DNA of 64,000 nucleotides, from positions 1 to 64,000 of the forward strand of contig CAWGJO010000037.1 of the NCBI GenBank assembly GCA_963822945.1, written 5' to 3'. Below the pieces are notes generated by a model. The model worked only from the letters and a program-made list of their open reading frames with translations. It was not told the origin of the DNA and did not search any database. Below, one piece after another: positions 47,914-64,000 of the stretch (its first letter is position 1; every line of letters begins with the position of its first letter). The position numbers and the translations under genes are program-made. This stretch comes from an uncultured Gemmatimonadaceae bacterium (lineage in GTDB: Bacteria; Gemmatimonadota; Gemmatimonadetes; Gemmatimonadales; Gemmatimonadaceae).

Positions 47914-48069
47914 GGGCCATCCCCACGTGAAGGACGACTGTGCACAAAATCGTATGCGCTGCACAGCATACGAGTTCGCCGCGTCGATCGCCAGGTGCGG
48001 CTGGAGTCGCGGGCCGGCCCTCGATTGTCGCGGAAGTGGCAGCGTGGGTTACAACGAGCCCAGTTGTTC

Positions 48070-48141: not shown

Positions 48142-49131
48142 ATGCGACCACCCGCCAAGCACCAGAGCGCCCGGCGCTATCCGCTGAACGCCATGCTCGG
48201 CACTGAAGCGAACGTCCGTCTGCTCCGGGTGCTGTTCGCGGCCGGGGATGAGCCGCTCGGGGCCGGTGAGTTGGCCCGCCGAGCGGCGCTCGGCCGCACG
48301 TCCATCTACAAGGCATTGCGCCATCTGGAGGAGGCCGGGATCGTGAGCCACGTCGGCACCGGGGCCCAGCGTCAGATCCGCATACGGGACGAGCACCCGT
48401 TGGTGCCGGTGCTGCATGCGCTGTTCGAGGGGGAGGCGTCGGTGTTCGACGGATTACTCGCCGCGCTACGTGAGGCCGCGGCGAAGGTCCCCGACGCTAC
48501 GTCGGTCTGGCTCGAAGGGCCGGTCACCACCGGCACGGATGCTCCGGATGAACTGGTGACGTGCACCGTGCTCGGAACGTCCGATGCCCTGCCACGCCTC
48601 ACGGCCGGACTCCGGGACGCCTTCGCTCCGATCGAGCGTGCCTTCGACGTGACGATCTCCATCCATGGCACGACGCGCGCGGAGTTGGCAATGCGATCGG
48701 GGGGCGGTGTGCGCGCGCTAAGCGACGCCATTCTGCTCGCGGGCACGCCGCCCGCGGCGTTTCACGCCGCGACCCGATCGCAGCCTGCAAAGCGCCGGCA
48801 CGTCGGGGCACACAGTGACCTCGACACGCAGGCCGTGGCACTCGGTGCCGCGCTCGCGAAGCTGATCAGGCGCGATCCCGGCCTCGTCGATCGTGCGCGG
48901 CGCGACGTCGAGCGCCGCATGCGGCGTGCGTCACCGCGCGAGCGGCACGAACTCGAGGAGTGGTCCCAGTTGCTCCGTAACACGTCTCCACACCGCCTTC
49001 GCGCGCTGCTCATCGATCCGGGGGAACGCATGACGCGACTGCGGCAGACGCTGCCGTTCATGCGCGTGCTTGCAGCAGACGAGCGCGCGAGTCTGGCGAA
49101 GCTGACGCGAGAGGTGAGGGGCAAGGAATGA
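48142..49131 (+). CDS. wHTH + degenerate nucleotidyltransferase-like + helical domain protein, putative antitoxin
   Basis: ELARRAALGRTSIYKALRHLEEAGIV HTH; SVWLEGPVTTG resembles a decayed MNT motif; C-terminal RLRQTLPF. Confidence 0.6.
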   Translation: MRPPAKHQSARRYPLNAMLGTEANVRLLRVLFAAGDEPLGAGELARRAALGRTSIYKALRHLEEAGIVSHVGTGAQRQIRIRDEHPLVPVLHALFEGEASVFDGLLAALREAAAKVPDATSVWLEGPVTTGTDAPDELVTCTVLGTSDALPRLTAGLRDAFAPIERAFDVTISIHGTTRAELAMRSGGGVRALSDAILLAGTPPAAFHAATRSQPAKRRHVGAHSDLDTQAVALGAALAKLIRRDPGLVDRARRDVERRMRRASPRERHELEEWSQLLRNTSPHRLRALLIDPGERMTRLRQTLPFMRVLAADERASLAKLTREVRGKE

Positions 49132-49682
49132 CGCGAGATCAGTTGGAGCACGCGATCCGCGCGGCCTGCGACGTCGCCGAAGACACCGAAGTGTTCGTCT
49201 TCGGTTCACAGGCGATCCTGGGGCAGTATCCCGATGCGCCGGAGGCGCTGCGGCAGTCCGCGGAGGCGGACATCGCGCCGGCGCATGCCGCCGGCAACGT
49301 CGATCTGATCGATGCGATGCTCGGCATGGAGTCCGCATTTCACGCGCAGTTCGGCTTCTACGTGCACGGCGTGCCGATCCAGGCAGCGGTACTTCCCGCT
49401 GGTTGGGAGCGGCGAGCCGTGGTAGTGCAGAACGCGAACACGCGTCACCTGATCGGGCGCTGTGTCGAAGCCCATGATCTTGCGGCTAGCAAGCTGGTCG
49501 CATTTCGGGAAAAGGACCGGGATTTCGTCCGGGTGCTGCTCGGCGAGGGGTTGGTTCAGGCGCGAAAGCTCAGGTTGCGGATCACGCAGCTTCCGGTAGT
49601 GCCGGGACGGTTTGGTGAGGAACAACGGGCGCACCTGATGGAATGGCTGCGGGGCACGAGCGGCGAACCGGGGCGGGGCTGA
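49128..49682 (+). CDS. Nucleotidyltransferase-fold protein (DUF6036-like), putative toxin
   Basis: MTRDQLEHAIRAA, FGSQAIL, SAEADI, DLAASKL..REKD; ATGA overlap with the HTH gene. Confidence 0.7.
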   Translation: MTRDQLEHAIRAACDVAEDTEVFVFGSQAILGQYPDAPEALRQSAEADIAPAHAAGNVDLIDAMLGMESAFHAQFGFYVHGVPIQAAVLPAGWERRAVVVQNANTRHLIGRCVEAHDLAASKLVAFREKDRDFVRVLLGEGLVQARKLRLRITQLPVVPGRFGEEQRAHLMEWLRGTSGEPGRG

Positions 49683-49888
49683 CGGGCACCGGGGCGTTCT
49701 CCTCGACCACGGCACCGTGCATCATGAACTTGGGCGGTAGCCTGCCAACTGCGCTCGGCGCGGCGAAGGCACGTCTGCCGCACGCGGCATTAGCGGTCCG
49801 CCACGGCTCCGTTTGTCATCAGCGCAAGTCGAGGCCGACCGGTGGTTCCGCTTCGCCGACCCGTCACTCCCACCGCGCCAACCATATC

Positions 49889-51571
49889 TCAGCGGCGCAC
49901 GAGCACCCCCGCATCGTGCACGATGCGGCCGCCGAGCACGGTGAGGACGCTGGTGATGCGGGGGAGCTGGGCGGCCGGGACAGTGAGCGGGTCCGCCGAA
50001 AGCACCGCGAGGTCGGCCAGCATGCCGGGGGCGAGCATGCCGCGCTCGGCCTCGCGTCCCTCCACATAGGCGCCGCCACGCGTATAGGCGAGGAGCGCCT
50101 GTTCGCGTGTGAGCGCCTGATCCGGACGGAACGGGTCGCGGATGGCGATCATCATGTTGAGCCACGGGCTCGCCTCGGGGCCGCCATTCGTGTCGGAGCC
50201 AAGCGCGTGGAGGACTCCGGCGTTCAGCAGGTTGCGCAGCGGCTGATAGACGGCACGCCGTTCGGGTCCCAACCGCACTTCCAATGTGCTGTCGGCGGTG
50301 TGCAATGGGTTCTGGGTCACGACCACCCCCAGCCGTTTCGCGATCGGGATGAGGTCGGGCATGAGCCCGTCGCCATGCTCCATGCGCACCCGCTTGGCGC
50401 GCCACCGTTCGGCGGGGGCCAGCGCCTGCATCGTATGCAGCACCAGCGCGGCGGTGGAGTCGCCGGCCACGTGCAGCGCCACCGACACGTTGGAATCGAG
50501 CACATGGCGCAGGATGCGCCGGATGGCGTCGGGCGAAAAGTTGACGGTGCCATACCAGCCCGGGGTCTGCGCGTACGGAGCGCGCAGGGCCGCGTTTCGA
50601 TCGGGCTGCGTGCCGTCGAGGATCCACTTCATGCCGGCCACCCGCACGAGCGGCGACGTGGGCCGCGGCCAGGGATGCGCCCACGCTTCCGCGACGTCCT
50701 TCTTCGGAAGGTACAGGCGGTAGAGGGTCCACCGCAGGGGCGCGTTGGCGGCGTCGAGCGCCGCGACCAGCCGGTCGAACGCGAGGGGCTCGCCCATGGT
50801 GTGCACGCTCGTGACGCCCCACGCCGACTCCTGCTCGGCGTACCGGCGGAGCGCCGCCACCGCCGAATCCTGCGGCAGGTTCTGCCGCAAGTGCGCCGCG
50901 GCATTCCAGATTGAGTATTCGTACAGGCGGCCGTTGAGGCGGCCGGTGGCGGGATCCCGTCCCAACCTTCCCCCGTCGGGCGCGACCGAGCGGTCGCTGA
51001 ACCCTGCTGCGCGCAGCGCCGCCGAGTTCATGATCACGCCGTGTCCGGTGAAGTACGCGAGCTCGACCGGGTTGTTCGGTGCAACGCGATCGAGCCAACT
51101 GCGATCGATGGCCGAATCGTCCAGCACGAGGGGGCCGATCTCTGCCGCAATGAACTGCCCGGGGGCGGCGCGGCCGACGGCAGCGCGAAGGGCGGCCTCC
51201 AGTTGTTGCGGGTTCGGTCCGGGGTCCGGCGGGCCTTGGGGCGGGAGCGTGAGTACGCCCGGAATGGGGATTGCCGGATGCATGTGTGCGTCGGTGAGCC
51301 CGGGAACGACGAACCGCCCGCCGAGCGCGATCCGGCGGGTGTGCGGGCCGGCCAGCCGTTCGATCGTCGAGTCCGCGCCGACCGCTTCGATGCGGTCGCC
51401 GCGAATCGCCACGGCCTGGGCCCAGGGATGTGTGGAGTCCGCGGTGAACACGCGGCCGCCGGTGAGCAGAAGGTCCGCCGGCTGCTGCGCACCGGCAATG
51501 GCGGGAGTGGATGCCGCGAGGGCAATCAGGGTGAGAACCACCGGGAGTGCAGAACGCGGGAACCGGGCCAT
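49889..51571 (-). CDS. Secreted amidohydrolase-3 (YtcJ-like)
   Basis: PGLTDAHMH, KWILDG, HVAGD, RMEHG, LGSD, GMLADLAVLS. Confidence 0.9.
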   Translation of the reverse strand: MARFPRSALPVVLTLIALAASTPAIAGAQQPADLLLTGGRVFTADSTHPWAQAVAIRGDRIEAVGADSTIERLAGPHTRRIALGGRFVVPGLTDAHMHPAIPIPGVLTLPPQGPPDPGPNPQQLEAALRAAVGRAAPGQFIAAEIGPLVLDDSAIDRSWLDRVAPNNPVELAYFTGHGVIMNSAALRAAGFSDRSVAPDGGRLGRDPATGRLNGRLYEYSIWNAAAHLRQNLPQDSAVAALRRYAEQESAWGVTSVHTMGEPLAFDRLVAALDAANAPLRWTLYRLYLPKKDVAEAWAHPWPRPTSPLVRVAGMKWILDGTQPDRNAALRAPYAQTPGWYGTVNFSPDAIRRILRHVLDSNVSVALHVAGDSTAALVLHTMQALAPAERWRAKRVRMEHGDGLMPDLIPIAKRLGVVVTQNPLHTADSTLEVRLGPERRAVYQPLRNLLNAGVLHALGSDTNGGPEASPWLNMMIAIRDPFRPDQALTREQALLAYTRGGAYVEGREAERGMLAPGMLADLAVLSADPLTVPAAQLPRITSVLTVLGGRIVHDAGVLVRR

Positions 51572-51654
51572 CGGCCGCTCCGTGTCGAGGGTGAGGAGGG
51601 GGGCGGGTTGAACAAATTGTCGGATTACCGCGGGCCCGAACAAGCGCACGAGGT

Positions 51655-51770
51655 GCGGAGAAACGGCGCGAGCCGCGCACCCTTGCCGGCAATCGTGCCG
51701 CGCGCCTGAAACCGTGGCTCGGTCACTTCCCACGCGGCCTTCAGACATGCACACGTCCCCGGCCCGAGGG
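51655..51770 (-). pseudogene. queG: queG 3' fragment, decayed
   Basis: Translates ..DVC..LKAAWEVTEPRFQARGTIAGKGARLA; aligns with the 53230-53465 copy (shared CGCGCCTGAA). Confidence 0.55.
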
Positions 51771-51845
51771 GTGTGATCTTCCGTGCGCTCGCGCGAATCA
51801 CATGTTGAGACCAGCAACGACCCGTCGTGAGCGGAACGGAGGCAC

Positions 51846-52355
51846 GTGCAGACACCGGGAGCCGAGAGCGAGTTCACCACCTTGCTGGACGCCCACAAGG
51901 GGATCCTCTACAAGGTGGGGAACGCGTATGCCACCAACGCGGAGGACCGCGCCGATCTGATGCAGGAGATCGCCGCGCAGTGGTGGCGCTCGTTTCCGCG
52001 CTACGACCGCCGGTTTCGCTTCTCTACATGGGCCTACCGCATCGCACTCAACGTGGGGATCTCGTTCTGCCGGCGCGAACGCCGAAGGGAGCGGACCTAC
52101 GTCGAGGCCGGCGACTCGGTGCTCGAAATCGTGGGGGATGATCCCCGAGTCTCTGCAGACGACGGTCGGGTGCGGGCATTGCACGGGTTCATAGCCACGC
52201 TGCCACCACTCGACCGGGCGCTCATTCTCCTGTATCTCGACGGCCATCGGTATGACGAGATCGCCGAGGTGCTCGGGATTTCCGTGAGCAACGTTGGCAC
52301 ACGCTTCGGGCGCATCAAACAGAGACTTCGCGGCGAGTTCTCCGCGGCAACTTGA
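51846..52355 (+). CDS. ECF RNA polymerase sigma factor
   Basis: DLMQEI, FSTWAYRIALNV, LYLDG..YDEIAEVLGIS.SNVGT. Confidence 0.9.
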   Translation: MQTPGAESEFTTLLDAHKGILYKVGNAYATNAEDRADLMQEIAAQWWRSFPRYDRRFRFSTWAYRIALNVGISFCRRERRRERTYVEAGDSVLEIVGDDPRVSADDGRVRALHGFIATLPPLDRALILLYLDGHRYDEIAEVLGISVSNVGTRFGRIKQRLRGEFSAAT

Positions 52356-53076
52356 ATGGGAGACGACATGGAACTGGACGACTTGAAGCGAAGGTGGGAG
52401 GAACAGGACCGGAAGCTGCAGGCGTCGCTGAGAATTCAGCGACTGAGTCTGCGCGAACTCGGCCGGGCCGAGGCGGCGATGGGGCGTCTGACACTCGGGC
52501 TCGAATTCGAAGTCGCGCTCGCGACGCTGTTCGCCGTCGCGCTCGGGTCCTTTGCGGCGAGCCACGTCGCCCCGCTCCGCGTATTCGCCTCCTCGATGGT
52601 GGTGGACCTCTACGTGCTCGCACTCGGCGCACTCGCGGCGCGGCAGATCTTCGCCATCCGCAGGCTCGACTGGTCGCGGCCCGTGACCGCCATACAGACC
52701 AGGCTGGAGTCGTTGCGGCTGGAACGGGCCAGAACCGCGTTGGCGGCCGTGCTGGTGGGAACCCTCCTCTGGATTCCGGCCGTCGCGGTCGTGGTGGCGG
52801 CGGTTGCCGGGGTGGACCTCTATGCCCGCGTCTCGCCGGCTTGGCTGGCGGCGAACTTTGCCTTCGCAGCCGGAGCGATCGTGGCGGTTCTATGGTGGGC
52901 CCGGCGCCGAGCGGCAAGGGGAGCGACGATGAACGGGTGGCTGGTGGCCGCGCTGAGCGGCACCGAGCCTGCGGTCGGCCCTCACCGTGCTGGCCGAGCT
53001 CCGGGAATTCGAAGGAACGAGCGGTGCACCGGGCACGGACGCCAGCGCCGACGCCGAGGGATGGGGGGAACCGTGA
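52356..53076 (+). CDS. Membrane protein, putative anti-sigma partner (frameshift near 52965)
   Basis: MELDDLKRRW, several transmembrane segments; alternative frame ends SLRSALTVLAELREFE.. Confidence 0.65.
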
Positions 53077-53229
53077 TCGCCAAGCGGTGGGCGCGGGACC
53101 ATCGGTGGCAAGCGATGCCGCGCTCAGCGGGCCCGCGGTGATGATCGAGCTTCAACTGGGGCGGTTCTGAAGCATTGGCCGCTGGGGGGACTCGCGAGCG
53201 AATGGTCCCGCGTGCGCGGCGCCATGCGT

Positions 53230-53465
53230 ACCCGATCGAGGCGTTTCGCATGAGGCCCGCCAGCATCGCCCGCTTCATCGCCGAGGCTTTGAACGCGGCG
53301 CGGAACTCGTTTTCGTTCATTGCGAGGATCTCAGTCGCGAGCGCCTTCGCGTACTTCTCCGTGATCACCGGCCGCGCCTGAATCGTAGCGTCCCGCAGGT
53401 CCCGCGTCCCGCGCGACTCCAGGTTCTACCGGCACACCTCCTGGGACGTGTGTCGACAGACCTGC
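53230..53465 (-). pseudogene. queG: queG 3' fragment (longest copy)
   Basis: QEVCR*N..IQARPVITEKYAKALATEILAMNENEFRAAFKASAMKRAMLAGLMRNA resembles the QueG CQEVCPWN...F...FKGS.MKR....L.RNA region. Confidence 0.75.
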
Positions 53466-53700
53466 ATTGCGATCGCGTTGGAGACGGGTGGGCGAACCAT
53501 CGCCAGGAGAGGGAGCTAGTGCGGCATCGCTGCAGAAGCCTTGCGTCCGCAGGGCGGCAGTGTGTGAGATTGCTGATGCGACGTGGGTATTGCCTCGCGC
53601 CGCCAGACAACTTGACGTCGGGAGCCAGCCGCTGATAGACTCGCTCCGTGGCTTCACGCAGCCGCATGAATCCGGCGACGACACCCATTCGCGATCACCG

Positions 53701-56106
53701 ATGACCCTCTTTGGAGAGGCGGTCTGGACGCTTCGGTCGCTCCGGCGCAATCTGACCTTCGCCGTAACGTTCGTCGCGGTGTTCGCCATCGGGCTCGGCG
53801 CCGGTACCGCCGTGGTCGCTGCCACCCGGGCGATCTATGGCGAGCGGCTGCCGGCACCGGCGCGTTGACGCTGGTCCGGATCTACACCGGGAATGCCGGC
53901 GCACCTGCCGCCAGCCCGGAGCGATTCGGCCGTAGCTCGATGCCGGAGATTCGCGCGTACGCCGAGGACAGCGCCGTGTTCCGTGCGGTCATCGCCACGA
54001 ACAACTTCTCGGCGACGGTGGGCGTCGGCGAACGGCGGCTGGCCGCTACGGGCTCCCTGGTGAGCGGCAACCACTTCTCCGTGCTCGGCCAGCGCGCGCA
54101 GCTCGGCCGCCTGATCGACCCCGACGACGATGCGGCGCGCGGGCGCGCCACCGTCGTGGTGCTGAGCGATGCGTTCTGGCACGCCTATTTCGGAGGACGC
54201 CGCAGCGCGGTCGGCGCCGTACTGCGGGTGAACGGATACCCGTTCACCGTGGTCGGCGTGGCGGCGCCGGACTTCCGCGGGACGGCGTTCGACTACACGC
54301 CCGGGTTCTGGGTCCCCATTGCCGCGCAGTCGGAGGCGTACGGCTCGCCCTGGGTGGTCGATTATCCCGATGCCTGGATGTTCGATACCTTCGCGCTGCT
54401 CCAACCGGGGGTCACACCCGTGCGCGCGGACGGGCACTGCAATCGCTGAAGCGGGGGCTCCACGCGCGGGCGACGACTGGTATGACCAGCGCGTCGCCAC
54501 GGTGCGATCAGGCCTCGACCTCGCTTGGCGCCTTCGACCGGCTGCGCCCACTCGTCGACCGGGTCAGCTGGCTTGTCGGCGCCGTCGCCATGCTTCTCAT
54601 TCTCATCGTGACAGCGAACCTGGCCATGCTTCTCGCCCGGCGCTTCGCACAGCACCAGCAGATCGCATCCAACTCGGCACTTGCGGCGACACACGAGCAA
54701 CTAGTGCGACAGCGGCGATCGAGACACTAGTCCTCACGTTCCCCGCCGTGGGCGCCGGGATCGTCGTCGCCCTGAGGCTCTCCGCGGTGTGGCCGCGCTC
54801 TTCCTCATGGCTTCCCCGGCCAGTCGGTTGTCGGCACCGCTGGCCGCCGGGCGGCCGCGACCGGGCTGGTGAGCGCGGCGTAGATGGCATCGCCTTAGCG
54901 TGGCGTGCGCCGCCCCGCTCACGGCCTGGCGCGCGGCCGGATGGGAGCACGGGTCGCGCGGCCGGCAGGTGCGTCACAGCTTCATGATCGCGCAGGTGGC
55001 CCTGGCGTTCGTGGTCGTACTCGTCGCGGCGTTCCTGCAACGGAGCGCCCACGCGCTCGCATCGGTGATCCGGGATCGACGTCGCAGACGTCCTACGGGC
55101 CGCGTCTACCTCTGGAACCGGGCGGGGTTCGACGCGGGCTCGATCGCTCGGTACGACGGAGTAGTGCGGCGACTGCGTCTGGATTCCCAGGTGGTGGACG
55201 CCTCCTCGGCTGCGCGCAAGTCCTTCGGGCTATGAAAACCGAACGGCGATGAGCGTACCGGGGCGTGCGCGGATTCGGGACAGGACAGCGTCGTCGCCTC
55301 GGCCACTGTCGGCATCCCAATACTCGCCACGCTGGGCGTTCCGATTCTCGAGGGGCGGGATTCGACCTGCGGGACACGGTCGGAGCGCCAGGGCAATCGT
55401 CGTCGATCGGGCGGCCGCACGGAACTCTGGTCAGGCGCAAGCGCGCTCGGTCAGGTGGTCCTCCATGCCGGCCAGCGCTTTGCAGTCGTCGGTGTCGTCG
55501 GCGACGCCGCCGCGCAAGACTGGACGCGCCTCACGTGCCGCGAGTCTACTTCGCGACTCCAGGCCCAGGGCTTCGCACCGCCGCACCAGAAGCTGTTCAT
55601 TCGGGTTCGCGGTCGGCGGACGCGGCCGGATCGCGCGCACGATCCAGCGCATCGCCCCGGGCCCCGCACGCGTCGAGCTGCGGACGTGGGGTCGATCCGC
55701 GACGATCAGTTCGGCGCGCTCGATGCGCTCGCGATCTCGTGGCGTCGATCGCGATCGTGGAGACGCTGTTGGCAGCGCTTGGCCTGGCCGGGCTCATGGC
55801 CTGTCTCGTCGGCCAGCGACTGCGCGAGACTGCCATCCGCCTGACGCTCGGCACCAAGCGGCGCTCGATTTTCTGGCTGCTGCTGCGCGATGCCGCGCGC
55901 TCAGTGCTCGCCGGAGCTGTGCTCGGCGCATTACTCTGGGGTCGTACGGCACGACTGGTCGCTTAGTTCCTCGCCCGAGCAAAGGGGTCGATCGATCCCG
56001 TGAGCGTCACCGCGTCGCTGGTGACGGTCATGACGGCCACGCTGGGGCTCGCAGCGCTGCCCTGCCTGAGCGGATCGCGACGGGCGCCCGTGTACCGGGG
56101 GAGTGA
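53701..56106 (+). pseudogene. ADOP-family permease, heavily disrupted
   Basis: LRSLRRNLTF, VSGNHFSVLG, ANLAMLLARR, AQVALAFV, ETAIRLTLG, DPVS scattered over all frames with stops. Confidence 0.7.
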
Positions 56107-56213
56107 GGAGGGGCGATCAATGCTGGACAGTGGGTCCACGTGCTTCGCTCCCACGGTTCGAAGGGAGCGAATGAGGCTTGCCATATGGCGAACCCCATGG
56201 GTACGCTTGGGGC

Positions 56214-56953
56214 ATGCGCAACTTCGCGTACAATCTGGTTCGGCGCGCGGCGGTCGTGGTCGCCGCGGTGCTGTGCCTGGGCGCTCCCAGCGTCGCCGCG
56301 CAGCAAGCTCCCGTGCGAGGTCGCGTCGTCGACTCCGCGGGCACTGCGGTGTCGCAGGCCGATGTCATTCTGCTGCCCGACAGCCTCCACACCACAACCG
56401 ATGGCACCGGCCGTTTCTCGTTCGGGCCGCTGGCCGCCGGCAAGCACATTCTGCGCGTGCGGCGTTTGGGGTTCGCCCCGGCATTCGTCCCGTTCATTGC
56501 GCCGCTGAACAGTGCCCTGGTCGTCGAACTGCCGCCGCTCCCGTAACGCTGCAGACGATCGTGACCAACGCGCTTTCAGGACGCCTGCCTCGCGTGATAC
56601 AGCGCGAAGAGGAACACCTGGGTGTGCAGCTCTATGGGCCGCGCCTGGACAGCCTGTTGCACCGCCACGAGGGCATGACCGTCGGGGAACTGCTGCCCTG
56701 GGATCGCGCTGTGGCGCTCAAGCTGATGTCATCCAGAGGGTGCCAAAAGGCGATCTATGTGGACGGCGACTCGGCCCGAGCGCCGATCCAATTCTACATC
56801 AGCAAGGATGAGATCGGGGCCATCGAGGTGTTCAATTCGCCCGACTTCATCCACGAGCCGTTCCTACCCCCGGATACCAAGGCCGGAAAGTGCGTGCAAC
56901 TCATCCTGATCTGGTCCAAGTACTACCAACAGCAGCCGTGGGGCGGTAAATGA
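56214..56953 (+). CDS. Secreted carboxypeptidase-regulatory-like domain protein (frameshift near 56540)
   Basis: Signal peptide, VRGRVVDSAG, TTDGTGRF, LRVRRLGF; C-terminal YVDG..IGAIEVF..C..ILIWSK. Confidence 0.65.
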
Positions 56954-56989
56954 ACAGCGCCGGACGGCCGTCGCGGTTCCGCTGAAGTC

Positions 56990-57095
56990 GTGCCGGCACA
57001 CCTCCCGGGAGGTGTGCCGACACACTGTATTGAGATCTCGTTGGCGAGCGGGCGGGAACTCCTGCGAGGACAAGCTGTTGGCGCGGAATCAAGGC
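56990..57095 (-). pseudogene. queG: queG-derived fragments including a perfect 26-bp palindrome
   Basis: CGGCACACCTCCCGGGAGGTGTGCCG (56994-57019; reads TSREVCR) next to VLAGVPARS/LANEI. Confidence 0.5.
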
Positions 57096-57245
57096 GATGC
57101 CGACCCGAAGGAACGGCTTGACGGTCCCCGATGGCTTTAGCAAAATGGAATCCGGTGCCGCGGAGCAGGGCACGATGAACTCCGCCGGAGTTCGTGCGCC
57201 GTCGGATCGCGATTGGCGCGAAGGCCGCAGCCTGGGGGAATCGCC

Positions 57246-59635
57246 GTGAAGGCCCTGGTGGACCGTTCCACGTTGCGCGCGCTCGCCCGCACACCGGGCT
57301 TCACGATCATGGTCATCGTGTCGCTGGCGCTGGCCGTGGGCCTCACGACCACCACCTACGGAATCGTTGACGCCGTGATGCATCCGTACGTGCCGTACCG
57401 TGCTCCCGAGCAGTTGTATGCGGTGCAGACCGATGCCTTCGACGTTTCGGATGACCTCCTGGCCGACATGGCGCGGTCACTGCGTGCCCAGCGTCAGCTC
57501 TACTCGGACTTCGCGATGGCCCTGGCGGCGCGGGCGCATCCGACGATCGGCGTTGCCGGACAGACGCTCGACGTCTTTCCCCAGGAAGCCAGCGTCAACT
57601 TCTTCGACGTGTTGGGTGTTCGCATGTTCGCTGGCCGCGGGTTCCGGCCGGAAGATCGCGACGCGCCCGACCGCGCGGGGGTGGTGGTGAGCTACCGGTT
57701 CTGGCGACGGTACCTGCACGGCGCCATGCCGCTGAGTTCGGTGCCCGTGATGGTGGACGGCCAGGCCTACACCGTGATCGGGGTGCTCGGGCCCGATGTG
57801 CGGCGCGGCGACGTGTTCCTCGCCATGCCGCGCGCCACCGAAGAGGGATGGTTCTTCGGCGCCGGGCCCGTCCTCAGGGTGCGGTCCGGCGTGACCGAAG
57901 CGCAGCTGACCGCGGCCCTCCGCCTGGCTGCGCGCCAACCTGAGCCGGAAGTACGGTCCCCAGCACGTGATTCGCTATGAGGTGCGCTCACTGGCCGGCG
58001 CCCCGCGGCAATTGCAACCCTTCCAATTCGCACTCTCCGGCGCCGCGCTGATCATTCTCCTGATCGCGTGCGCCAACGTCGCCAACCTGCTCATCGTCCG
58101 CGTCGTCACGCGGAGCGTGAAATTGCCGTGCGAATGGCGCTCGGCGCGTCGCGGCGTGACGTGGGGCGGTTCGTGTTCGGCGAAGCCATCGTGCTCGCCG
58201 TCGCGGGTGGTGCACTCGGGCTGCTGCTCGCGGCGTGGAGCATCCATCTGATCGAGTACCGGTTCACGATGGATGTGAGCCAGATCGGCCTCCTGCAGCC
58301 GCATTTCGACTGGCGGGTGGCAGCGGCATCTGCGCTGGCCAGCGCGCTCGTGGTGGTGCTCATCGCCTGGGGCGCGACGGTCCGCGCACGCGCCACGAAC
58401 GTGAACGAGGCGATGAAGGACGGCGCCGGCACGACGACGCAGCCGGCTCATCGCTCGCACGGATTGCTCGCGGTCACCGAGGTCGCCCTGTCCCTGGTGG
58501 TACTGATGGGGGCCGGCCTCTTGTTGCGCGCGAGTCAGGCCATCCGGCATTTCGACTTCGGCTACGACCCGCGGCACATAGTCTCGACGACGGTGGCGCG
58601 GCCGCGACGGGATTCGACCACGAGTCTCGGCGAGGAATTCTATGCCGACGTGCGCAACGGGATCCGCGCACTCCCCGGCGTGCGGGGCGTGGCCACGACC
58701 TACGAGGAAACGGTGCCGGCCAGCGCCGTGACCTCGGACGTGGGCGGTGCATCGCCGCGCGTGGCGCGCATCCCCACCTACTCGGTGGTCTCTCCGAGTT
58801 TTTCCATCTCGTCGGGATTGCGATCAAACAGGGGCGTGACTTCGAGCCCGGCGACGTGGACAGCGCCGGCGCGGCGATCGTGGACGAGACACTCGCCCGG
58901 ATGCTCTGGCCACACGAATCGCCGCTGCAACATCTGGTCAAGCTCGGTGGGCCGCGTTCCAACGGGCCCTGGGTCCGCGTGGTCGGCGTCGTCCCGCCCA
59001 TACGCTTCTCGTTCACGCCCGGCCGCGACCCCGACCAGGCAATGGCAGTGCATCCGAACGTCTGGGTAGCCAGGGCCGGGAGCGCGCACGGCGAGTACGA
59101 CGGACGGAAGCTGTTCATCCGTACCCGAGCAGACGAGGCCAGCGCCCTCGCCGGCGTGTCGCGGTATCTGCAGACCATCGAGCCGTGGAACCGACCCGTG
59201 TACCGGCCCATCCTCGAGCAATTCGACCAGGAGATGCAGCTCAGCCAATTTCTCGCGTCGCTGTTCGGGGCGCTCGCCGGCTTTGCCCTCCTTCTCTCGA
59301 CGGTCGGGTTGTACAGTCTGCTGAGCTACATCGTGGCGCGGCGCGGGCGCGAATTCGCCATGCGAGCCGCGCTCGGCGCCCGCTCGCGCGACCTGGTGCG
59401 GGTGGTCGTTCGCGATGCGATGCTGCTGATCCTGGGGGGTACTGCCGTCGGTGCGTTCGGCGCCATGTGGACCGGCCGAGTGATGGAGCACCTGCTGTTC
59501 ACGGTGAACCCGCTCGACGCACTCACCCTCGTGGCGGCCGAAGCCGTGCTCATCGTGATCTCGCTCGCCGCCGTCATCGGGCCGGCGTACCGGGCCACGC
59601 GGGCGGATCCCGTGGAACTCCTGCGAGCGACGTAA
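57246..59635 (+). CDS. ADOP-family permease (frameshifts near 57945, 58115 and 58800)
   Basis: LRALARTPGF, LLIACANVANLL, EIAVRMALGA, EFAMRAALGA, ADPVELLRAT. Confidence 0.82.
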
Positions 59636-59659
59636 AGGCGTGATGGCGCCGGTACCAGG

Positions 59660-59865
59660 GCTATCGGCTTCGCCCGCTTCATCGCCGAGCCTTTGAACGC
59701 GGCGCGAAAGTCGGCTTCTCTCATGGCGAGGGTCTCCGTCGCCGGTGTCTCACCGCGTCCTTCTCGCCGAGTGCCGCCCGCGCCTCGACCCTCGGCTCCC
59801 TCACATCCCTTGCGACTCCAGGATTCTACCGGCACGCGTCCGGGGAGGTGTGCCGACAAACCACA
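59660..59865 (-). pseudogene. queG: queG 3' fragment
   Basis: GEKDA/ATETLAMREADFRAAFKGSAMKRAK plus palindromic Cys-motif remnant at 59829-59856. Confidence 0.7.
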
Positions 59866-59960
59866 TCGAAATCGAACCGAGCACCGGACGCCGAGCCACC
59901 TCCGCCACATGAACTGAATCGACCAATCGCCCGTAACACGGCAACATTCCCGGCCGCGCG

Positions 59961-62600
59961 TTACCCCGCGTCGCCCTGAATGCTCCGTACCACGTCCTGG
60001 CGCAGCATGCGGCGGATCGGGAGCGCCATTCCGAACCCCATCACGACCAGCAGAGTGACCGCGACCACTCCCACCGGCACGAGCTGCATGGCGAACATCG
60101 GCTTTCCCGCGAACGGGTTCCGCAGGTAAGTGTCAGCGATGTAAACGGCGCGCGAGCCGAGGAGCAGCCCTCCAAGCGTCGCCAACAAGGCGACAGTGCC
60201 AAGGTCGGCGACGAGCGCACGGACCAGGCGGCGCGGAGTGGCGCCGAGAGCAACGCGGATGCCGAACTCCCGCGCCCGGAGCGCCACCGAGTAGGACGTA
60301 AGCCCATACACGCCTGCCACGGCGAGCACGAACGAGAGCGCCGCCATGAACGCGAAGAAGTAGGTCCGAGACCGTGCCTGCGCGCTCCAGCGGTCGACGA
60401 CGGCGGCGACGGGCTCCAGATCGCTCACGACGATGCGCGGGTCGATGCGCCCTACGGCTTCTTTCACGGCGCGGAGCCCGGTTGCCGGGTCTCCGACCGT
60501 TCGAATGCGGACTTCAGTCGTCGTGTGGCCGAGCGGTAGACTCTGTACGGTGTAGATCGGCGGCGTCAGGGGGTCGAAGTTCGGCATGTCGCGCACATCG
60601 GGTACGACACCGACCACGGTGAACCAGGTGACGCGGGCGGAGCCGTCGAGCGCGAGTCCGACTCGCCGGCCGATGGGAGCCCGATCGCCAAAGGTCCAGT
60701 GGGCCGTCGTCTTGGAGAGCACGATCACAGGGGCGTGCGCTTCGGCCTCCGCCGCCGTTGGAAGCCGGCCCAGGATCGGTTTGAGGCCCAGCGTCTTGAA
60801 GTAGCTCAGCGAAACGTCCTTCCAGGCCTCGGCGGCGTACAGGTGTGGCCGCCAATCCGGGTAGAAGCGAGCAGCGCCCGGTATGGGCGTCCGCACCACA
60901 GCCGCGGACTGAATGCCGGGGATGCCTTCAACCGCCTGGACGAGCGACATGGCGGTCTCCTGCGATGCGACGGTGTCGGGGACGCTCAGCCGGGCCGTGA
61001 GGACTTGTGAATAGTCGAATCCCGGTCCGGCGCCCTGTGCATCCCGATTGGCGACCACCAGGGCCGCCAGCATGGCCATACACGCCAGCGACAGTCCGAG
61101 CTGAAGCGCGACGAGACCGCGTCGGTTGCGGATCTCTCGCGAACCGCCCGTTGATGAAGATGCGCCGGACAGCACGGCTCGAAGGTCGGCGCGCGCGAGA
61201 TCGATGGCGGGCGCAAGGCCAAACAGCAGGCCGACGAGGACGGTTCCGGCAACGCCGAACGCCACCGTTGGCCAGTTCATCCGCGGCACCACCAGCATGA
61301 AATCCCGTCCGAACCAGAGACGGCGCGCGTCGAGGAGCCACTTTGCGATGACGATGGCAGCGGCGCCGCCGGCGGCCGCCATGAGCGCCGCCTCGATGGT
61401 GAGCATGCCTACGATGCGTCGCCGGGACGCGCCCAGGGCTACGCGTACCGCGATCTCCTCTCGGCGCCGCATGCCACGCGCGAGCAGCATCGTCGTGAAG
61501 TTCACGGCACCGAGCAGGATGATTACGATTGCCGCCGCAATCCAGAGGCGAATCAGGTTGCGGTAAGGGGACGTGACATCCCGGGCCAGCGGCAAGAGAT
61601 CCGCCACCGGGGTTTTGGCCAACCCGGCGACGATGCCCGCCTGATGGAATGCGACCGACACGTCGGCCTGGGCGCGGGCCATCGGGACGCCCGGCCGGAG
61701 CCGGGCGATCACAACGTTATTCTGCCATTTCCTGTCGGCGGGTGGCGTGGCCAGCCGCCGAAGGCTGTCGTGACCCAACGGGAGCCAAATGTCGGTGCCG
61801 AGTGGCAGGCTGAACCCCTGCGGCATTACCCCAACGATCGTCGCGTGCTGTCCATCGACAGGCACCGTGGTGCCAATCACGTCCGATCGTCCACCGAACT
61901 CGGAATGCCAGATGTCGTAGGAAAGAATGACGGGCGGCACGGTTTCATGCGCATCGTCTTCCGTAAACGCGCGCCCGAGAAGCGGGCGCACACCGAGAAC
62001 GTCGAAATAGTTCGACGTCACCGGAACGGACGATACGCGGATCGCGTAGCCGCTGGGGCCGAGGTCCGAGCCGGGTCCGTACTCCTGCGCGACCGCGACG
62101 CCGGAGAAGGAGCGCACTCGCTGCGCGGCCAGCGCATCACGCGCGGGAAGCACGGAGAAGAGCGAATTCATCTGCGGGTCGCGCTCGCGGACGATGACCA
62201 GCTCTGCCTGGCTGGGAAAGGGTAGCGGACGCAGAAACAGCGCGACCACCATGCTGAACACGGCGGTGGCGAGCGCCATGCCAAGCGCGAGCGAAAGCGA
62301 TGCGCCACCCACCGCTCCCGGGTGCCGCCGCAAGCGCCGCGCCGCGCTCGCCGCCTCGGTGAGTGACCGCTCGATCCACGGGAGTCCGCGCTGGTCGCGG
62401 TAGGCGTCGCGTGCTGCCTCGAGGCCGCCCGCGTGTACCATCGCGAGACGGCGGGCTTCGGATGGCGCCATTCCGCGGCGCACAAGCTCGTCGGTCTCCA
62501 GGGCGAGGTGCGCGGCGAACTCTTCGTTCATGTCGCCGTCGCGATGCGCCCGGCGGAAGAATCCGCCGACCCGGACAATGATTTCCCGAACTTTGCTCAC
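59961..62600 (-). CDS. ADOP-family duplicated ABC permease
   Basis: EEFAAHL..RRGMAPSEARR, EIAVRVALGA, EFGIRVALGA; GTG start overlapping the PadR stop. Confidence 0.9.
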   Translation of the reverse strand: MSKVREIIVRVGGFFRRAHRDGDMNEEFAAHLALETDELVRRGMAPSEARRLAMVHAGGLEAARDAYRDQRGLPWIERSLTEAASAARRLRRHPGAVGGASLSLALGMALATAVFSMVVALFLRPLPFPSQAELVIVRERDPQMNSLFSVLPARDALAAQRVRSFSGVAVAQEYGPGSDLGPSGYAIRVSSVPVTSNYFDVLGVRPLLGRAFTEDDAHETVPPVILSYDIWHSEFGGRSDVIGTTVPVDGQHATIVGVMPQGFSLPLGTDIWLPLGHDSLRRLATPPADRKWQNNVVIARLRPGVPMARAQADVSVAFHQAGIVAGLAKTPVADLLPLARDVTSPYRNLIRLWIAAAIVIILLGAVNFTTMLLARGMRRREEIAVRVALGASRRRIVGMLTIEAALMAAAGGAAAIVIAKWLLDARRLWFGRDFMLVVPRMNWPTVAFGVAGTVLVGLLFGLAPAIDLARADLRAVLSGASSSTGGSREIRNRRGLVALQLGLSLACMAMLAALVVANRDAQGAGPGFDYSQVLTARLSVPDTVASQETAMSLVQAVEGIPGIQSAAVVRTPIPGAARFYPDWRPHLYAAEAWKDVSLSYFKTLGLKPILGRLPTAAEAEAHAPVIVLSKTTAHWTFGDRAPIGRRVGLALDGSARVTWFTVVGVVPDVRDMPNFDPLTPPIYTVQSLPLGHTTTEVRIRTVGDPATGLRAVKEAVGRIDPRIVVSDLEPVAAVVDRWSAQARSRTYFFAFMAALSFVLAVAGVYGLTSYSVALRAREFGIRVALGATPRRLVRALVADLGTVALLATLGGLLLGSRAVYIADTYLRNPFAGKPMFAMQLVPVGVVAVTLLVVMGFGMALPIRRMLRQDVVRSIQGDAG

Positions 62601-62941
62601 GGGGCGGCGGTCCGGGGGCCGAGGAACCAGGCCAGAATCTCCGTCGTGGCGTGCCACTGGCGGGCCTCGTGTGCGAGGTGTCGCCGCCCGGCGGCGGTGA
62701 GCGTGTAGAATTTGGCGCGCCGGTTGTTTTCCGACTGTCCCCAGGAGGACGTGACGAATCCCTGCTGTTCCAGCTTGAGCAGGGCGGGATAGAGCGTGCC
62801 GTAGTTGAGCGAGAGCCGGTCGCGGCTCGTCTCCTCGATGCGGCGCGCGATGCCGTAGCCGTGAAGCGGTCCGAGTACGTCGAGCGTGCGCAGCACCATG
62901 AGGGCGAGCGTACCCTGCCAGACGTCGAGTTGGGCGGGCAT
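62597..62941 (-). CDS. PadR-family regulator (acidobacterial type)
   Basis: QGTL, LHGYGIARRIE, GTLYPALLKLE, NNRRAKFY. Confidence 0.93.
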   Translation of the reverse strand: MPAQLDVWQGTLALMVLRTLDVLGPLHGYGIARRIEETSRDRLSLNYGTLYPALLKLEQQGFVTSSWGQSENNRRAKFYTLTAAGRRHLAHEARQWHATTEILAWFLGPRTAAP

Positions 62942-62947
62942 GAGATG

Positions 62948-62968
62948 TCCTATTGGAAAGCAATAGGA
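62948..62968. promoter_or_regulatory. Probable PadR autoregulatory operator
   Basis: Perfect inverted repeat TCCTATTG-GAAAG-CAATAGGA, 6 bp upstream of the padR ATG. Confidence 0.7.
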
Positions 62969-63029
62969 ACGTACGAATCGCCCCCGTGGGCGGCAAGAGG
63001 CCGGCGGCGGGTGCGTTCAGCGGCCGACG

Positions 63030-63150
63030 GTTTGTGTCACAAGGGCACCGTTGCGCCGGAGGCCCTTTACCTTCGCCCGCTTCATCGCCGAGCCTTTGAA
63101 CGCGGACCGGAATCGGCGGCGCCGCCGACCTCCGGCACGTGGTGTGGACC
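63030..63150 (-). pseudogene. queG: queG 3' fragment with internal deletion
   Basis: FRSAFKGSAMKRAKVKGLRRNGALV; 35 bp identical to the 59668-59702 copy. Confidence 0.7.
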
Positions 63151-63246
63151 TTTCCGGCGAAGCATGCTAGCGTGAGGACACCACGCGCGCCGGCCGCCGG
63201 GCGCGCGTCGGGTGGTGCCGAACAACTCCCACCGAATCGTTCGGGC

Positions 63247-64000
63247 ATGAACGCTGACGAACTGCGACGGGTCCAGGCCGTGTTCGACGCCGCAATCGAA
63301 CTTCCGCCGGATCAACGCGCCGAATTCCTCGATCGCACCTGCGCGTCCGACGCGGCCACCCGCGCCGCCGTCGAGCGGCTGCTACGCGCCGATGACGCCG
63401 TCCACGGCGGCACCTTCATCAGCGCTGCGGTGGACGAGGCCGCGAAGGAATTCGCGTCCGCGCCGGTCGCCCCGGCGCAGACCGTGGGCGCCTACCGGTT
63501 GCTGCACGAATTGGGACGCGGGGGCATGGGCACGGTGTGGCTGGCCGAACGCGCGGACGAGGCATACCGGGCGCGCGTTGCCATCAAGTTCGTGCGCGGC
63601 GGATTCGCGCACCCCGAACTCGAGCGGCGATTCCTCGCCGAGCGGCAGATTCTGGCCGATGTGCTGGACCATCCGAACATCGCGCGCCTGCTGGACGGCG
63701 GCGACGCACCGGACGGTTCGCCGTATCTGGTCATGGAGTACGTGGACGGTGAGCCGATCACCGAGCTACGCGACGCGCCACGCGCTGTCGATCGGAGACC
63801 GGCTGCGGATCTTCCGCCTGGCGTGCGAGGCGGTCCAGCACGCGCACAACTCCCTGGTGGTGCACCGGGACATCAAGCCGTCCAACATCCTGGTACAGGC
63901 CGACGGCGTGCCGAAGCTGCTGGACTTCGGCATCGCCAGGCCGCTGGCCCCCGGCGTTGGGCAGGAGACGACGGCGGCGGTGCGCCTCATGACCCCGTCG
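63247..64000 (+). CDS. Hanks-type Ser/Thr protein kinase (frameshift near 63765; runs off the right edge)
   Basis: [41 protein letters not shown]. Confidence 0.9.

Follow-up and report, generated by a model that had tools for sequence, protein, structure and literature searches.

Co-oriented queG 3' ends in an uncultured Gemmatimonadaceae bacterium: a probable array of integrative cassettes

What places the same decayed piece of a housekeeping gene, always on the same strand, in the gaps between unrelated accessory genes? The question is raised by a 64,000-nucleotide (nt) stretch from an uncultured Gemmatimonadaceae bacterium (the window: positions 1-64000 of contig C37 of genome G000, i.e. 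G000:C37:1-64000), in which successive gene modules are separated by co-oriented copies of a repeat. In its complete form, this repeat includes the 3' end of queG, the gene for the epoxyqueuosine reductase QueG. A reading of the letters alone, here called the sequence-only reading, had proposed that DNA was repeatedly inserted into queG, each event restoring the gene and displacing its old 3' end. The queG fragments, an empty site in the related genome G014 and the turnover of cargo between relatives all support this proposal, and we consider it likely that the locus was built by tandem, site-specific accretion of small integrative cassettes, mostly without an integrase, into the 3' part of queG. 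The G000 assembly has 45 contigs and is 88% complete. Labels such as G001-G014 denote the other genomes compared, C-numbers the contigs within a genome and L-numbers the loci.

The queG gene and its displaced 3' ends

When repeat copies are aligned with queG, and 15 arms with one another, a complete boundary is seen to consist of three parts: an arm of approximately 95 nt, which is conserved between copies and absent from queG; an inverted repeat (palindrome) of 24-26 base pairs (bp); and the 3' end of queG. The sequence-only reading had described five homologous minus-strand gaps in the window and had taken all five for pieces of queG. Their homology and strand are upheld by nhmmer searches with a DNA profile made from six repeat copies (an arm-only profile was made separately), which find one common repeat on the minus strand of every gap: 51758-51675 (weak, E 0.0025, profile positions 51-139), 53489-53155 (E 3e-77), 57051-56993 (E 7e-7), 59888-59617 (E 4e-64) and 63113-63049 (E 9e-13, profile positions 180-244). 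The C-terminal coding part of QueG, from the second 4Fe-4S motif onward, is present in three of the five. This extent, also claimed beforehand, is borne out by a TIGR00276 search and by tblastn with the bacterium's own QueG, which matches the minus strand at 53449-53174 (E 9e-10, QueG residues 233-312), 59840-59668 (E 6e-6, residues 236-292, in two pieces) and 63097-62990 (E 0.24, residues 284-314). The 51.7 kb copy is not matched by tblastn with this query and appears as a weak remnant in the DNA profile only; the 57.0 kb copy consists of the non-queG arm and the palindrome, with the QueG coding part absent.

All copies lie on the minus strand and differ in completeness. The fullest boundary spans 59617..59917, with an arm at 59856-59917 (arm profile E 3e-13), a palindrome at 59830-59855 and a decayed queG 3' end at 59617-59830. 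At 53.4 kb, an arm (53456-53519) and palindromic core (53430-53455; together 53430..53519, arm profile E 6e-21) are followed by a displaced, decayed queG 3' end at 53155..53430, seen by tblastn, translation and nhmmer: the minus-strand translation of this gap is a decayed QueG C-terminus with a TAG stop after the palindrome and a small insertion. The copy at 56994..57079 has a core that is a perfect 26-bp palindrome (56994-57019) and an arm at 57020-57079 (arm profile E 2e-17) without a queG 3' end. The remaining two copies lack arm and palindrome: a truncated queG 3' end at 63005..63113 retains only the FKGSAMKRAK motif and the tail, and has the same counterpart in G012, and a weak 3'-end remnant lies at 51675..51758. 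The next arm and palindrome occur past the window (C37 66122-66212). As the sequence-only reading had counted, a 33-nt motif occurs three times in the window (53266, 59670 and 63073), with none expected from 100 shuffles. Repeat finding in the gaps gives two families, a motif-bearing stretch of 64-76 nt and a palindrome-bearing stretch of 45 nt.

An intact minus-strand queG had been predicted to the right of position 64000. The sole full-length queG of G000 is instead found on another contig (C31:17003-17944, + strand), where TIGR00276 matches 17015-17941 with 311.5 bits against a cut-off of 200. As predicted, this single gene heads a co-oriented run of fragments: copies follow downstream on the same + strand at 24.1, 26.2, 33.3, 41.6, 44.9, 48.3, 49.9 and 51.6 kb (tblastn and DNA profile). 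Two fragments were also hit in the TIGR00276 search, at 22-29 bits and over model positions 228-308, which marks them as pieces rather than genes. By tblastn, homology between fragments and queG extends over approximately 250 nt up to the stop codon, with E values down to 1e-22.

The repeat is restricted to this one locus. Fragment-profile matches with E <1e-3 occur on only four of the 45 contigs (C31, C19, C37 and C8), rows on C20, C21 and C26 having E values of 0.05-0.99, and arm-profile matches occur on only five (C19, C31, C37, C7 and C8). A scan of the G000 contigs that permitted up to 5 substitutions found 12 palindromes, all on C19, C31 and C37 and none elsewhere in the genome. The expectation that fragments would cluster downstream of the intact gene rather than scatter is thus confirmed: the significant copies lie on array contigs only and are co-oriented.

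The empty site is seen in G014, a repeat-free genome. There, the upstream neighbours of queG are orthologues of the C31 genes at 14.2-16.7 kb, and directly downstream of queG lie orthologues (75-92% amino acid [aa] identity) of the window genes at 49.7-45.5 kb, including an ADOP permease at 91.6%. DNA homology between G014 and the window starts at approximately 49,682, about 40 nt past the G014 queG stop codon. Everything from the C31 queG to position ~49,685 of the window is therefore inserted material, which makes the window the distal part of a queG-anchored array; the physical join between C31 and C37/C19 is inferred from this synteny. The sequence-only reading had an amidohydrolase as left flank and a kinase as right flank. 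Because the insertion limit lies at ~49,685 and not at 51,655, the amidohydrolase is the last cargo rather than a flank, and the kinase too is cargo inside the array.

After removal of redundancies, the array measures at least ~97 kb (~2.4% of the genome) and holds approximately 20 boundaries. Several contigs are redundant or broken at the repeat. C8 is a gap-rich (292 gaps), 89% reverse copy of C31 24145-33306; C19 1-6548 overlaps C37 75002-81532 for 6.5 kb at 99.3% identity; C31 48329-55999 is a 7.7-kb self-inverted foldback at the contig end, starting at a palindrome; both ends of C7 (3.8 kb) carry repeat copies; and G000 contigs break inside the repeat. The C8 copy, the C19/C37 overlap, the foldback, these breaks and single-base differences from public contigs (given below with the cargo) are what one would expect if the array were an artefact of metagenome assembly or binning, with strain variants collapsed or chained at the repeat. 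We judge this very improbable: five copies lie on one contig within the window, 14 co-oriented arms occupy a stretch of ~100 kb on one 551-kb contig of G012, and in three further relatives queG and its array are contiguous on long contigs. These are G010 (two fragments after queG spanning 6 kb, on a 1.8 Mb contig), G011 (four fragments, 11 kb, on a 355 kb contig) and G009 (several fragments, about 21 kb, on a 715 kb contig).

Among relatives, 12 of the 16 further genomes of the genus have the arm (1-15 matches per genome); none of 24 genomes from other genera of the family and order does. The four same-genus genomes without the arm have one queG each and no fragments. Arms are unidirectional in every examined stretch except two, the C31 foldback and contig C8 of G006. 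A search of genome contigs with the exact core pattern returned one record, the G012 contig, a pattern too strict to show the distribution.

Boundary structure, crossover position and cassette exchange

The inverted repeat joins queG and non-queG sequence. Its right half, with the bases that follow, corresponds to the queG codons for ..EVCPWN, the second 4Fe-4S motif, while its left half is the mirror image and not queG sequence. The target has the form GTGTGT-CAGG-AGGTGTGCCCG in most of the genus's queG genes, and the cassette core has CAGG and the right half-site in common with it. The core positions are the most conserved (80-99%; 70 sites from 13 genomes). Distal copies usually retain arm and palindrome and not the queG part, and a few retain only the FKGSAMKRAK motif and tail. 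Where the adjoining queG part is lost, arm and palindrome are still 85-95% alike, which suggests selection on the site.

The core of the live gene varies between genomes. In the live queG of G000, G012, G006 and G001, CAGG has given way to GAGG or GGGG, which replaces Gln by Glu or Gly; arm matches are most numerous in two of these genomes, G012 and G000 (15 each). CAGG is kept in the repeat-free genomes and in three examined array genomes with 1-4 arm matches. The altered core might mean less further integration at the gene itself.

A structured RNA was considered and ruled out, as Rfam gives no match at E up to 1 over window positions 51000-64000 and RNAalifold on 15 arms finds no pairs and no consensus structure. 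A short hairpin of variable sequence can be seen by eye at the 5' end of the arm, with a register that shifts between copies. An attC-like long hairpin was likewise rejected, since single-stranded DNA folds of five full copies, on both strands, share no arm-to-motif pairing; a 9-nt complementarity between arm and motif, seen by eye, was not borne out by these folds.

The repeat might also be a regulatory or terminator element that was duplicated locally together with PadR-ADOP paralogues, its likeness to queG being incidental. Much of the cargo does consist of PadR regulators with ADOP permeases, the core would form a GC-rich hairpin, and ADOP paralogues are numerous, with 34 intervals in G000. 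This explanation nevertheless has next to nothing left to recommend it: approximately 10 of these intervals are on array contigs, and the ~24 elsewhere have neither arm nor palindrome; the same boundaries border cargo other than ADOP (sigma factor, kinases, NhaA, ArsP and amidohydrolase); the likeness to queG extends over ~250 nt as far as the stop codon; neither strand has a T-run after the hairpin; and Rfam match and consensus fold are both absent.

Cargo turnover is evident between close relatives. As had been anticipated, relatives carry differing cargo in differing order (comparisons with G012, G006, G011 and G004). Despite 96% identity around queG, G000 and G012 have different arrays: a 3.2-kb insert with PadR and ADOP genes separates queG from a response regulator in G012 and is missing in G000, and the cassettes between the second and third fragments are unrelated in the two genomes. 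Conversely, some blocks are far more alike than the backbone, whose identity was measured solely over 3-8 kb upstream of queG. G000 and G006, 88% identical by this measure, share a 1.7-kb block (C31 48293-49967) at 98.9% and a 10.8-kb block at 98.0%; G006 and G012, with an 86% backbone, share blocks of 7.2 kb and 9.2 kb at 99.5% and 99.6%, respectively. The window's kinase block (63076-66185, 3.1 kb) is 98.0% identical to G012.

The position of the crossover emerges from the ends of such blocks. In a cross-genome census of 93 alignments of at least 600 bp, the left ends of at least eight lie 3-45 nt before a palindrome centre, the remaining ends including other positions; six right ends lie 10-30 nt after the centre (five at 10-15 nt and one at 30 nt). 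Many block ends have the same palindrome offset in both genomes. Such offsets are expected if the true junction is the centre, because alignments then run on into the conserved arm and half-site. Three junctions of blocks with at least 99.5% identity were read by nucleotide, and all three switch within TCCCAGG: the sequences are identical on one side and unrelated beyond. At least 45 nt of conserved arm adjoin these switch points. This pattern also shows that core, queG end, cargo, arm and core move as one unit, the arm belonging to the cassette on the upstream side.

Live queG genes bear the mark of such replacement. In G010, the live 3' segment has 85% identity to a displaced fragment of G004 and 81-82% to fragments of G011 and G012, compared with 76% to the nearest live gene; the live end of G009 is 89% identical to its own displaced copy versus 78% to the nearest live gene. 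A PRiA4-type cassette lies behind the live gene in G010 and behind a displaced fragment in G000 (C19 end), G006, G011 and G004. Of 30 full-length displaced ends, 25 can still be translated over at least 70 codons without a stop and show the QueG motifs; the window copies at 53.4 and 59.8 kb are decayed. The median ratio of nonsynonymous to synonymous substitution rates (dN/dS) is 0.30 for open fragments, 0.27 for fragments versus live genes and 0.21 for live genes, values calculated on open fragments only, with five displaced ends containing stops (including the window's 59.8 kb copy) excluded. Most of the divergence thus arose under protein-level constraint, which fits either ends that once completed a functional queG or ends kept fit to do so.

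We propose that the attachment core is the 24-26 bp inverted repeat, whose right half encodes the Cys-Pro of the second 4Fe-4S motif of QueG, and that strand exchange would take place at its centre, which is CCCAGG in cassettes and CAGG in most queG genes of the genus. Read in the direction of queG, a cassette would comprise the core, its own last ~80 queG codons, 1.5-8 kb of cargo and the ~95-nt arm. Integration, presumably of a circular intermediate, would join the cassette's queG end to the gene, leaving the gene intact, and would push the former queG end downstream, behind the cassette's arm. Repetition would generate the co-oriented series of arm, palindrome and old queG end, in which older copies would lose the queG part and retain arm and palindrome. 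A tyrosine integrase would be supplied in trans, most cassettes encoding none; cassettes and multi-cassette blocks would still transfer between species, and the process may be active in G000 at present.

Integrase candidates and the case for site-specific integration

The enzyme is most likely a tyrosine integrase acting in trans. The recombinase search that the sequence-only reading had recommended was productive in part: a tyrosine integrase lies at the core in two relatives, and none that is cognate was found in G000. In G012, 46 nt separate the end of a 480-aa tyrosine recombinase from the palindrome and queG end that follow it. The recombinase matches PF00589 with 30 bits and the archaeal XerA 4a8e with E 5e-4, including the box II motif RH...LGH...Y. 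A second G012 integrase of 372 aa, with the usual motifs, lies 3 kb away. In G002, an 89% orthologue of the 480-aa recombinase adjoins the same type of site on a contig without arms, and in G006 the identical block downstream has its start precisely at the core, the integrase island being absent.

The two islands at these cores have contents of their own. That of G012 (G012:C18:141273-149876; L011:11273-19876) holds two tyrosine recombinases, a Fic-domain protein and an OLD-family ATPase with TOPRIM, typical defence or addiction cargo. In G006, a lower-GC (59-63%) island (G006:C8:20001-29400; L024:1-9400) ends exactly at the core and encodes an 825-aa Hsp70-like protein, an AAA ATPase and open reading frames (ORFs) without a family match; it may be a defence-type module.

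In G000, PF00589 matches one strong Xer-like gene on C24 and one weak candidate on C6, with none on the queG contig, and a PF00239 search found no resolvase or serine recombinase. In 10 relatives, PF00589 searches found no match beside the arrays in nine, G012 being the exception. No phyletic match of any integrase with the arrays is apparent in these relatives; a third recombinase (~138 bits) is present in some only. An origin from Xer/dif was considered and rejected. A dif-like site with an 11-6-11 layout (C24:13823) lies 17 kb from the sole strong Xer-type gene (C24:31324-31839), and it is unlike the palindrome, which makes Xer unlikely; the palindrome is also found nowhere outside the array. 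A second Xer gene, present in every examined relative, was not found in the 88%-complete G000.

A number of observations weigh against site-specific accretion by such an integrase. In the XerA alignment, the box I arginine position of the 480-aa recombinase aligns to Asp. This integrase was found in two of 17 genomes of the genus, with one weak partial match besides, and the sequence beside it is without the conserved 95-nt arm, so that arm-type cassettes may use another enzyme. No cognate integrase was detected in the 88%-complete G000, where tblastn with the G012 integrases yielded no orthologue, and there is no integrase among the 49 ORFs next to arms in 21 arm-bearing metagenome loci (up to 4 kb per side). 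No circular or excised form was seen in the public runs, which gave short contigs only, and C31 and C37/C19 are not joined physically in the assembly. As to the junctions, the G012 insert behind queG (G012:C19:157845-161064; L012:2845-6064) is flanked by a ~25-bp queG-tail repeat and not by the palindrome; several copies are reduced to the FKGSAMKRAK motif; the start of the kinase block 63076-66185 lies ~20 nt past the palindrome and its end within the 33-nt motif; and there are mismatches in both half-sites bordering the 98.9% cassette. For relatives of the 480-aa integrase, a pattern search of metagenome contigs gave 56 matches, none of which was confirmed.

Homologous recombination is the main rival for present-day shuffling, and recombination between conserved stretches surely contributes. 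Taken as the whole explanation, it would make the array a fossil: a few integrase islands would have entered long ago, RecA-type homologous recombination and imported DNA would have done the rest, and there would be no site-specific mobility at present. The scarcity of integrases, with none in G000 or beside the arrays in nine of 10 relatives, speaks for this explanation, as do the block ends that fall in the 33-nt motif rather than the palindrome and the conserved stretches of 30-50 nt, which suffice for homologous exchange. The G012 insert, too, would fit a single homologous crossover of a circle with a truncated queG end, which leaves a flanking repeat of this kind. Such a fossil is unlikely, however, to account for the locus: all three near-identical junctions switch in the same 7 nt despite at least 45 nt of arm alongside, arm and palindrome stay 85-95% alike while the queG part is lost (which suggests site selection), the displaced queG ends have open frames and low dN/dS, and an integrase island ends exactly at the core. 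We therefore prefer site-specific accretion at queG, with homologous exchange as a contributor.

Known systems and the cargo of the array

Replacement of a gene end by an incoming element is familiar from the isocitrate dehydrogenase gene icd of Escherichia coli: e14 or phage 21 brings an alternative 3' end, icd stays intact and the old end becomes a pseudo-fragment. The queG cassette resembles these elements in its gene-end replacement and differs in that each of them is a single prophage with its own integrase and forms no array.

Integrons and clusters of attC sites lacking integron integrases (CALINs) are one-directional arrays of small, swappable cassettes that grow at one end; many have no integrase nearby, and their cassettes occur between species and in reordered form. 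The sequence-only reading had called the queG array integron-like, which holds for the layout, a long one-directional array whose cassettes are common to several species in different order. It does not extend to the machinery. No IntI-type integrase was found by queG (no PF00589 match on the queG contig). Integron attC sites are folded imperfect palindromes with R and L boxes, whereas the queG site is a 24-26 bp symmetric core with a one-sided arm and is not of attC type. Integron cassettes are promoterless and co-oriented, whereas queG cargo lies on both strands with its own PadR or sigma-factor regulators, and the docking site, unlike that of an integron, lies within a housekeeping gene, which has to be restored by every cassette. 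The array is thus integron-like in layout only, every other integron feature that could be looked for here being absent. The modules that exploit Xer recombination (IMEX/dif modules) are bounded by 28-bp XerC/XerD dif-like sites, which the palindrome of the queG array does not resemble.

The closest described system is that of the Dehalococcoides ssrA islands. These islands lie in tandem within ~100 kb downstream of a single-copy gene, with number and cargo strain-specific; a 20-bp repeat of the 3' end of this gene, with a 15-bp element motif just upstream, marks their borders, and an integration module with the serine recombinase DsiB is present in 16 of 31 (PMC3146451). Tandem units, 3'-end direct repeats, an element motif and the presence of integration genes in only part of the units are common to both systems. 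The ssrA islands target a tmRNA gene with a 20-bp repeat and use a serine recombinase, whereas the queG array has a protein-coding target in which ~250 bp of coding end are replaced, a candidate tyrosine recombinase and a palindromic core. The queG units are also smaller, nearly all without integration genes, and have a conserved arm of ~95 nt. In the scheme for cis-mobilizable elements (CIMEs), an integrated element decays to an att-flanked unit without an integrase, a new element integrates into the att site at the gene end, and the tandem composites are co-mobile (PMC5704250). CIMEs (ICESt1-type, at a gene 3' end) thus resemble the queG array in having att-flanked, integrase-less units in tandem. 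The CIME cases described there join two or three elements, compared with ~20 boundaries in G000 and 14 arms on one G012 contig, and the queG units, unlike CIMEs, are cassette-sized, have a long conserved arm in common and carry a selected copy of the gene end. Genes for tRNA modification are known targets: SGI1 integrates at the 3' end of trmE, other islands target dusA, and tandem integration of SGI1 has been reported (PMC8409611, PMC2297512). In common with what is probable for the queG array, such islands are inserted by a tyrosine integrase at a specific site in a conserved tRNA-modification gene; they differ in target gene, in size (20-40 kb), in carrying their own integrase and mobilisation functions and in forming no long arrays. 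A search of a limited literature library found no publication naming queG as an attachment site.

Several features are new: queG as a target, with the core in its iron-sulfur motif; a long replaced coding end that is open after displacement; many small, integrase-less units with a long arm; and exchange of cassettes between species. queG thereby joins the list of conserved genes at which elements dock, with a target in DNA that encodes an iron-sulfur cluster motif, and a housekeeping gene would act as a docking site for swappable genes. Accretion usually involves two or three islands; here it would have produced ~100 kb of cassette-sized units without integrases. The open frames of displaced ends suggest selection on the cassette as well as on the host. 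The array would be a concrete route for the spread and turnover of ADOP permeases in the Gemmatimonadaceae, a soil group with little-studied mobile elements, and as the repeat breaks assemblies of these genomes, it has a practical use for binning. A more far-reaching interpretation, which we offer tentatively and with some doubt, is that the genus keeps a working gene-cassette system, a functional analogue of the integron with a separate origin: docking at the queG core, a site made of arm and core, rare integrases acting in trans and a queG end kept by selection, which lets a cassette take first place. If so, species would draw on the array as a common stock of interchangeable accessory modules, PadR-ADOP permease modules among them.

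The module contents given by the sequence-only reading (an extracytoplasmic function [ECF] sigma factor with an anti-sigma factor, ADOP with a secreted protein, ADOP, and PadR with ADOP) agree with the Pfam, NCBIfam and tblastn results. Beyond the distal end of the array lie native genes, which originally followed queG and have orthologues in G014 (Pfam/NCBIfam): an ADOP permease (45409-47964, - strand), a helix-turn-helix (HTH) protein (48142-49131, + strand) and a DUF6036 nucleotidyltransferase-like protein (49128-49682, + strand). The latter two genes (48142-49682) overlap by 4 nt and resemble a toxin-antitoxin-type pair. Between this flank and the last cargo are ~200 nt (49685..49888) with no recognisable queG remnant; blastn with a word size of 7 found no match there to the G014 queG 3' end. 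The terminal cargo is the amidohydrolase (49889..51600, - strand; Pfam Amidohydro_3, E 1e-67), whose G012 orthologue (94% aa identity) has repeat copies on either side.

Proceeding towards queG, the ECF sigma factor (51846-52355, + strand; Pfam Sigma70_r2 and r4_2; NCBIfam sigma70-ECF, 75 bits) is followed by a 261-aa partner (52356-53141, + strand) with no Pfam match, a putative anti-sigma factor by its gene position only. The next module (53520..56990, + strand; Pfam and tblastn) contains ADOP permease remnants at 54027-54428 and 55625-56092 and a CarboxypepD_reg-domain protein at 56178-56546. It is succeeded by an ADOP permease (57264..59632, + strand) with a frame change near 58.8 kb, where tblastn with three intact ADOPs passes from frame 3 to frame 2. 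On the - strand, 60204..62926 holds a PadR regulator (62615-62926) and an ADOP permease (60204-62573), the latter identified by tblastn and by NCBIfam TIGR03434 with 516 bits, under the family cut-off of 622. A Ser/Thr protein kinase (63139..64000, + strand; Pfam Pkinase, E 4e-9) continues beyond the window.

Parts of window positions 52000-61000 are contained in 11 public runs, with shares of 0.05-0.24, uncovered positions being uninformative; the four runs that were examined all consist of short Logan contigs. Contigs of three to four public soil or salt-marsh runs agree in differing from the window by single-base indels at 55067-55520 and 63665-63765, so that some of the ADOP and kinase frameshifts are probably assembly errors of the window. 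One public contig linking 51655 to 56999 at the 57.0 kb palindrome was not counted, as its overlap on one side is 24 letters inside the repeat.

Other cargo of the G000 array includes more PadR and ADOP pairs, NhaA, ArsP, an amino-acid permease, a response regulator, kinases and the insertion sequences IS110 and IS3. In the 3.2-kb insert of G012, ADOP precedes PadR, the reverse of the usual order. In the arm-bearing metagenome loci, 15 of the 49 ORFs are of ADOP type. HipA kinase and HTH pairs lie beside arm-bearing boundaries in loci L063 and L077, indicating that array cargo includes toxin-antitoxin modules as well as permeases. An IS110-family (DEDD) transposase (G000:C31:34104-35234; L005:14104-15231) lies ~500 nt behind the 33.3 kb boundary; the IS110 family is known for site-specific insertion, so that this transposase may target the repeat. 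Inside the array past the window, an IS3-family transposase pair occurs at C37 75094-76208 and 77500-77727 (L009), repeated at C19 93-1207 and 2503-2730, and a 75-aa ORF close by has a CPxCGG zinc-finger-like motif, reminiscent of IS91-type transposases. In metagenome locus L068, an ORF with a Y2_Tnp match lies behind the boundary.

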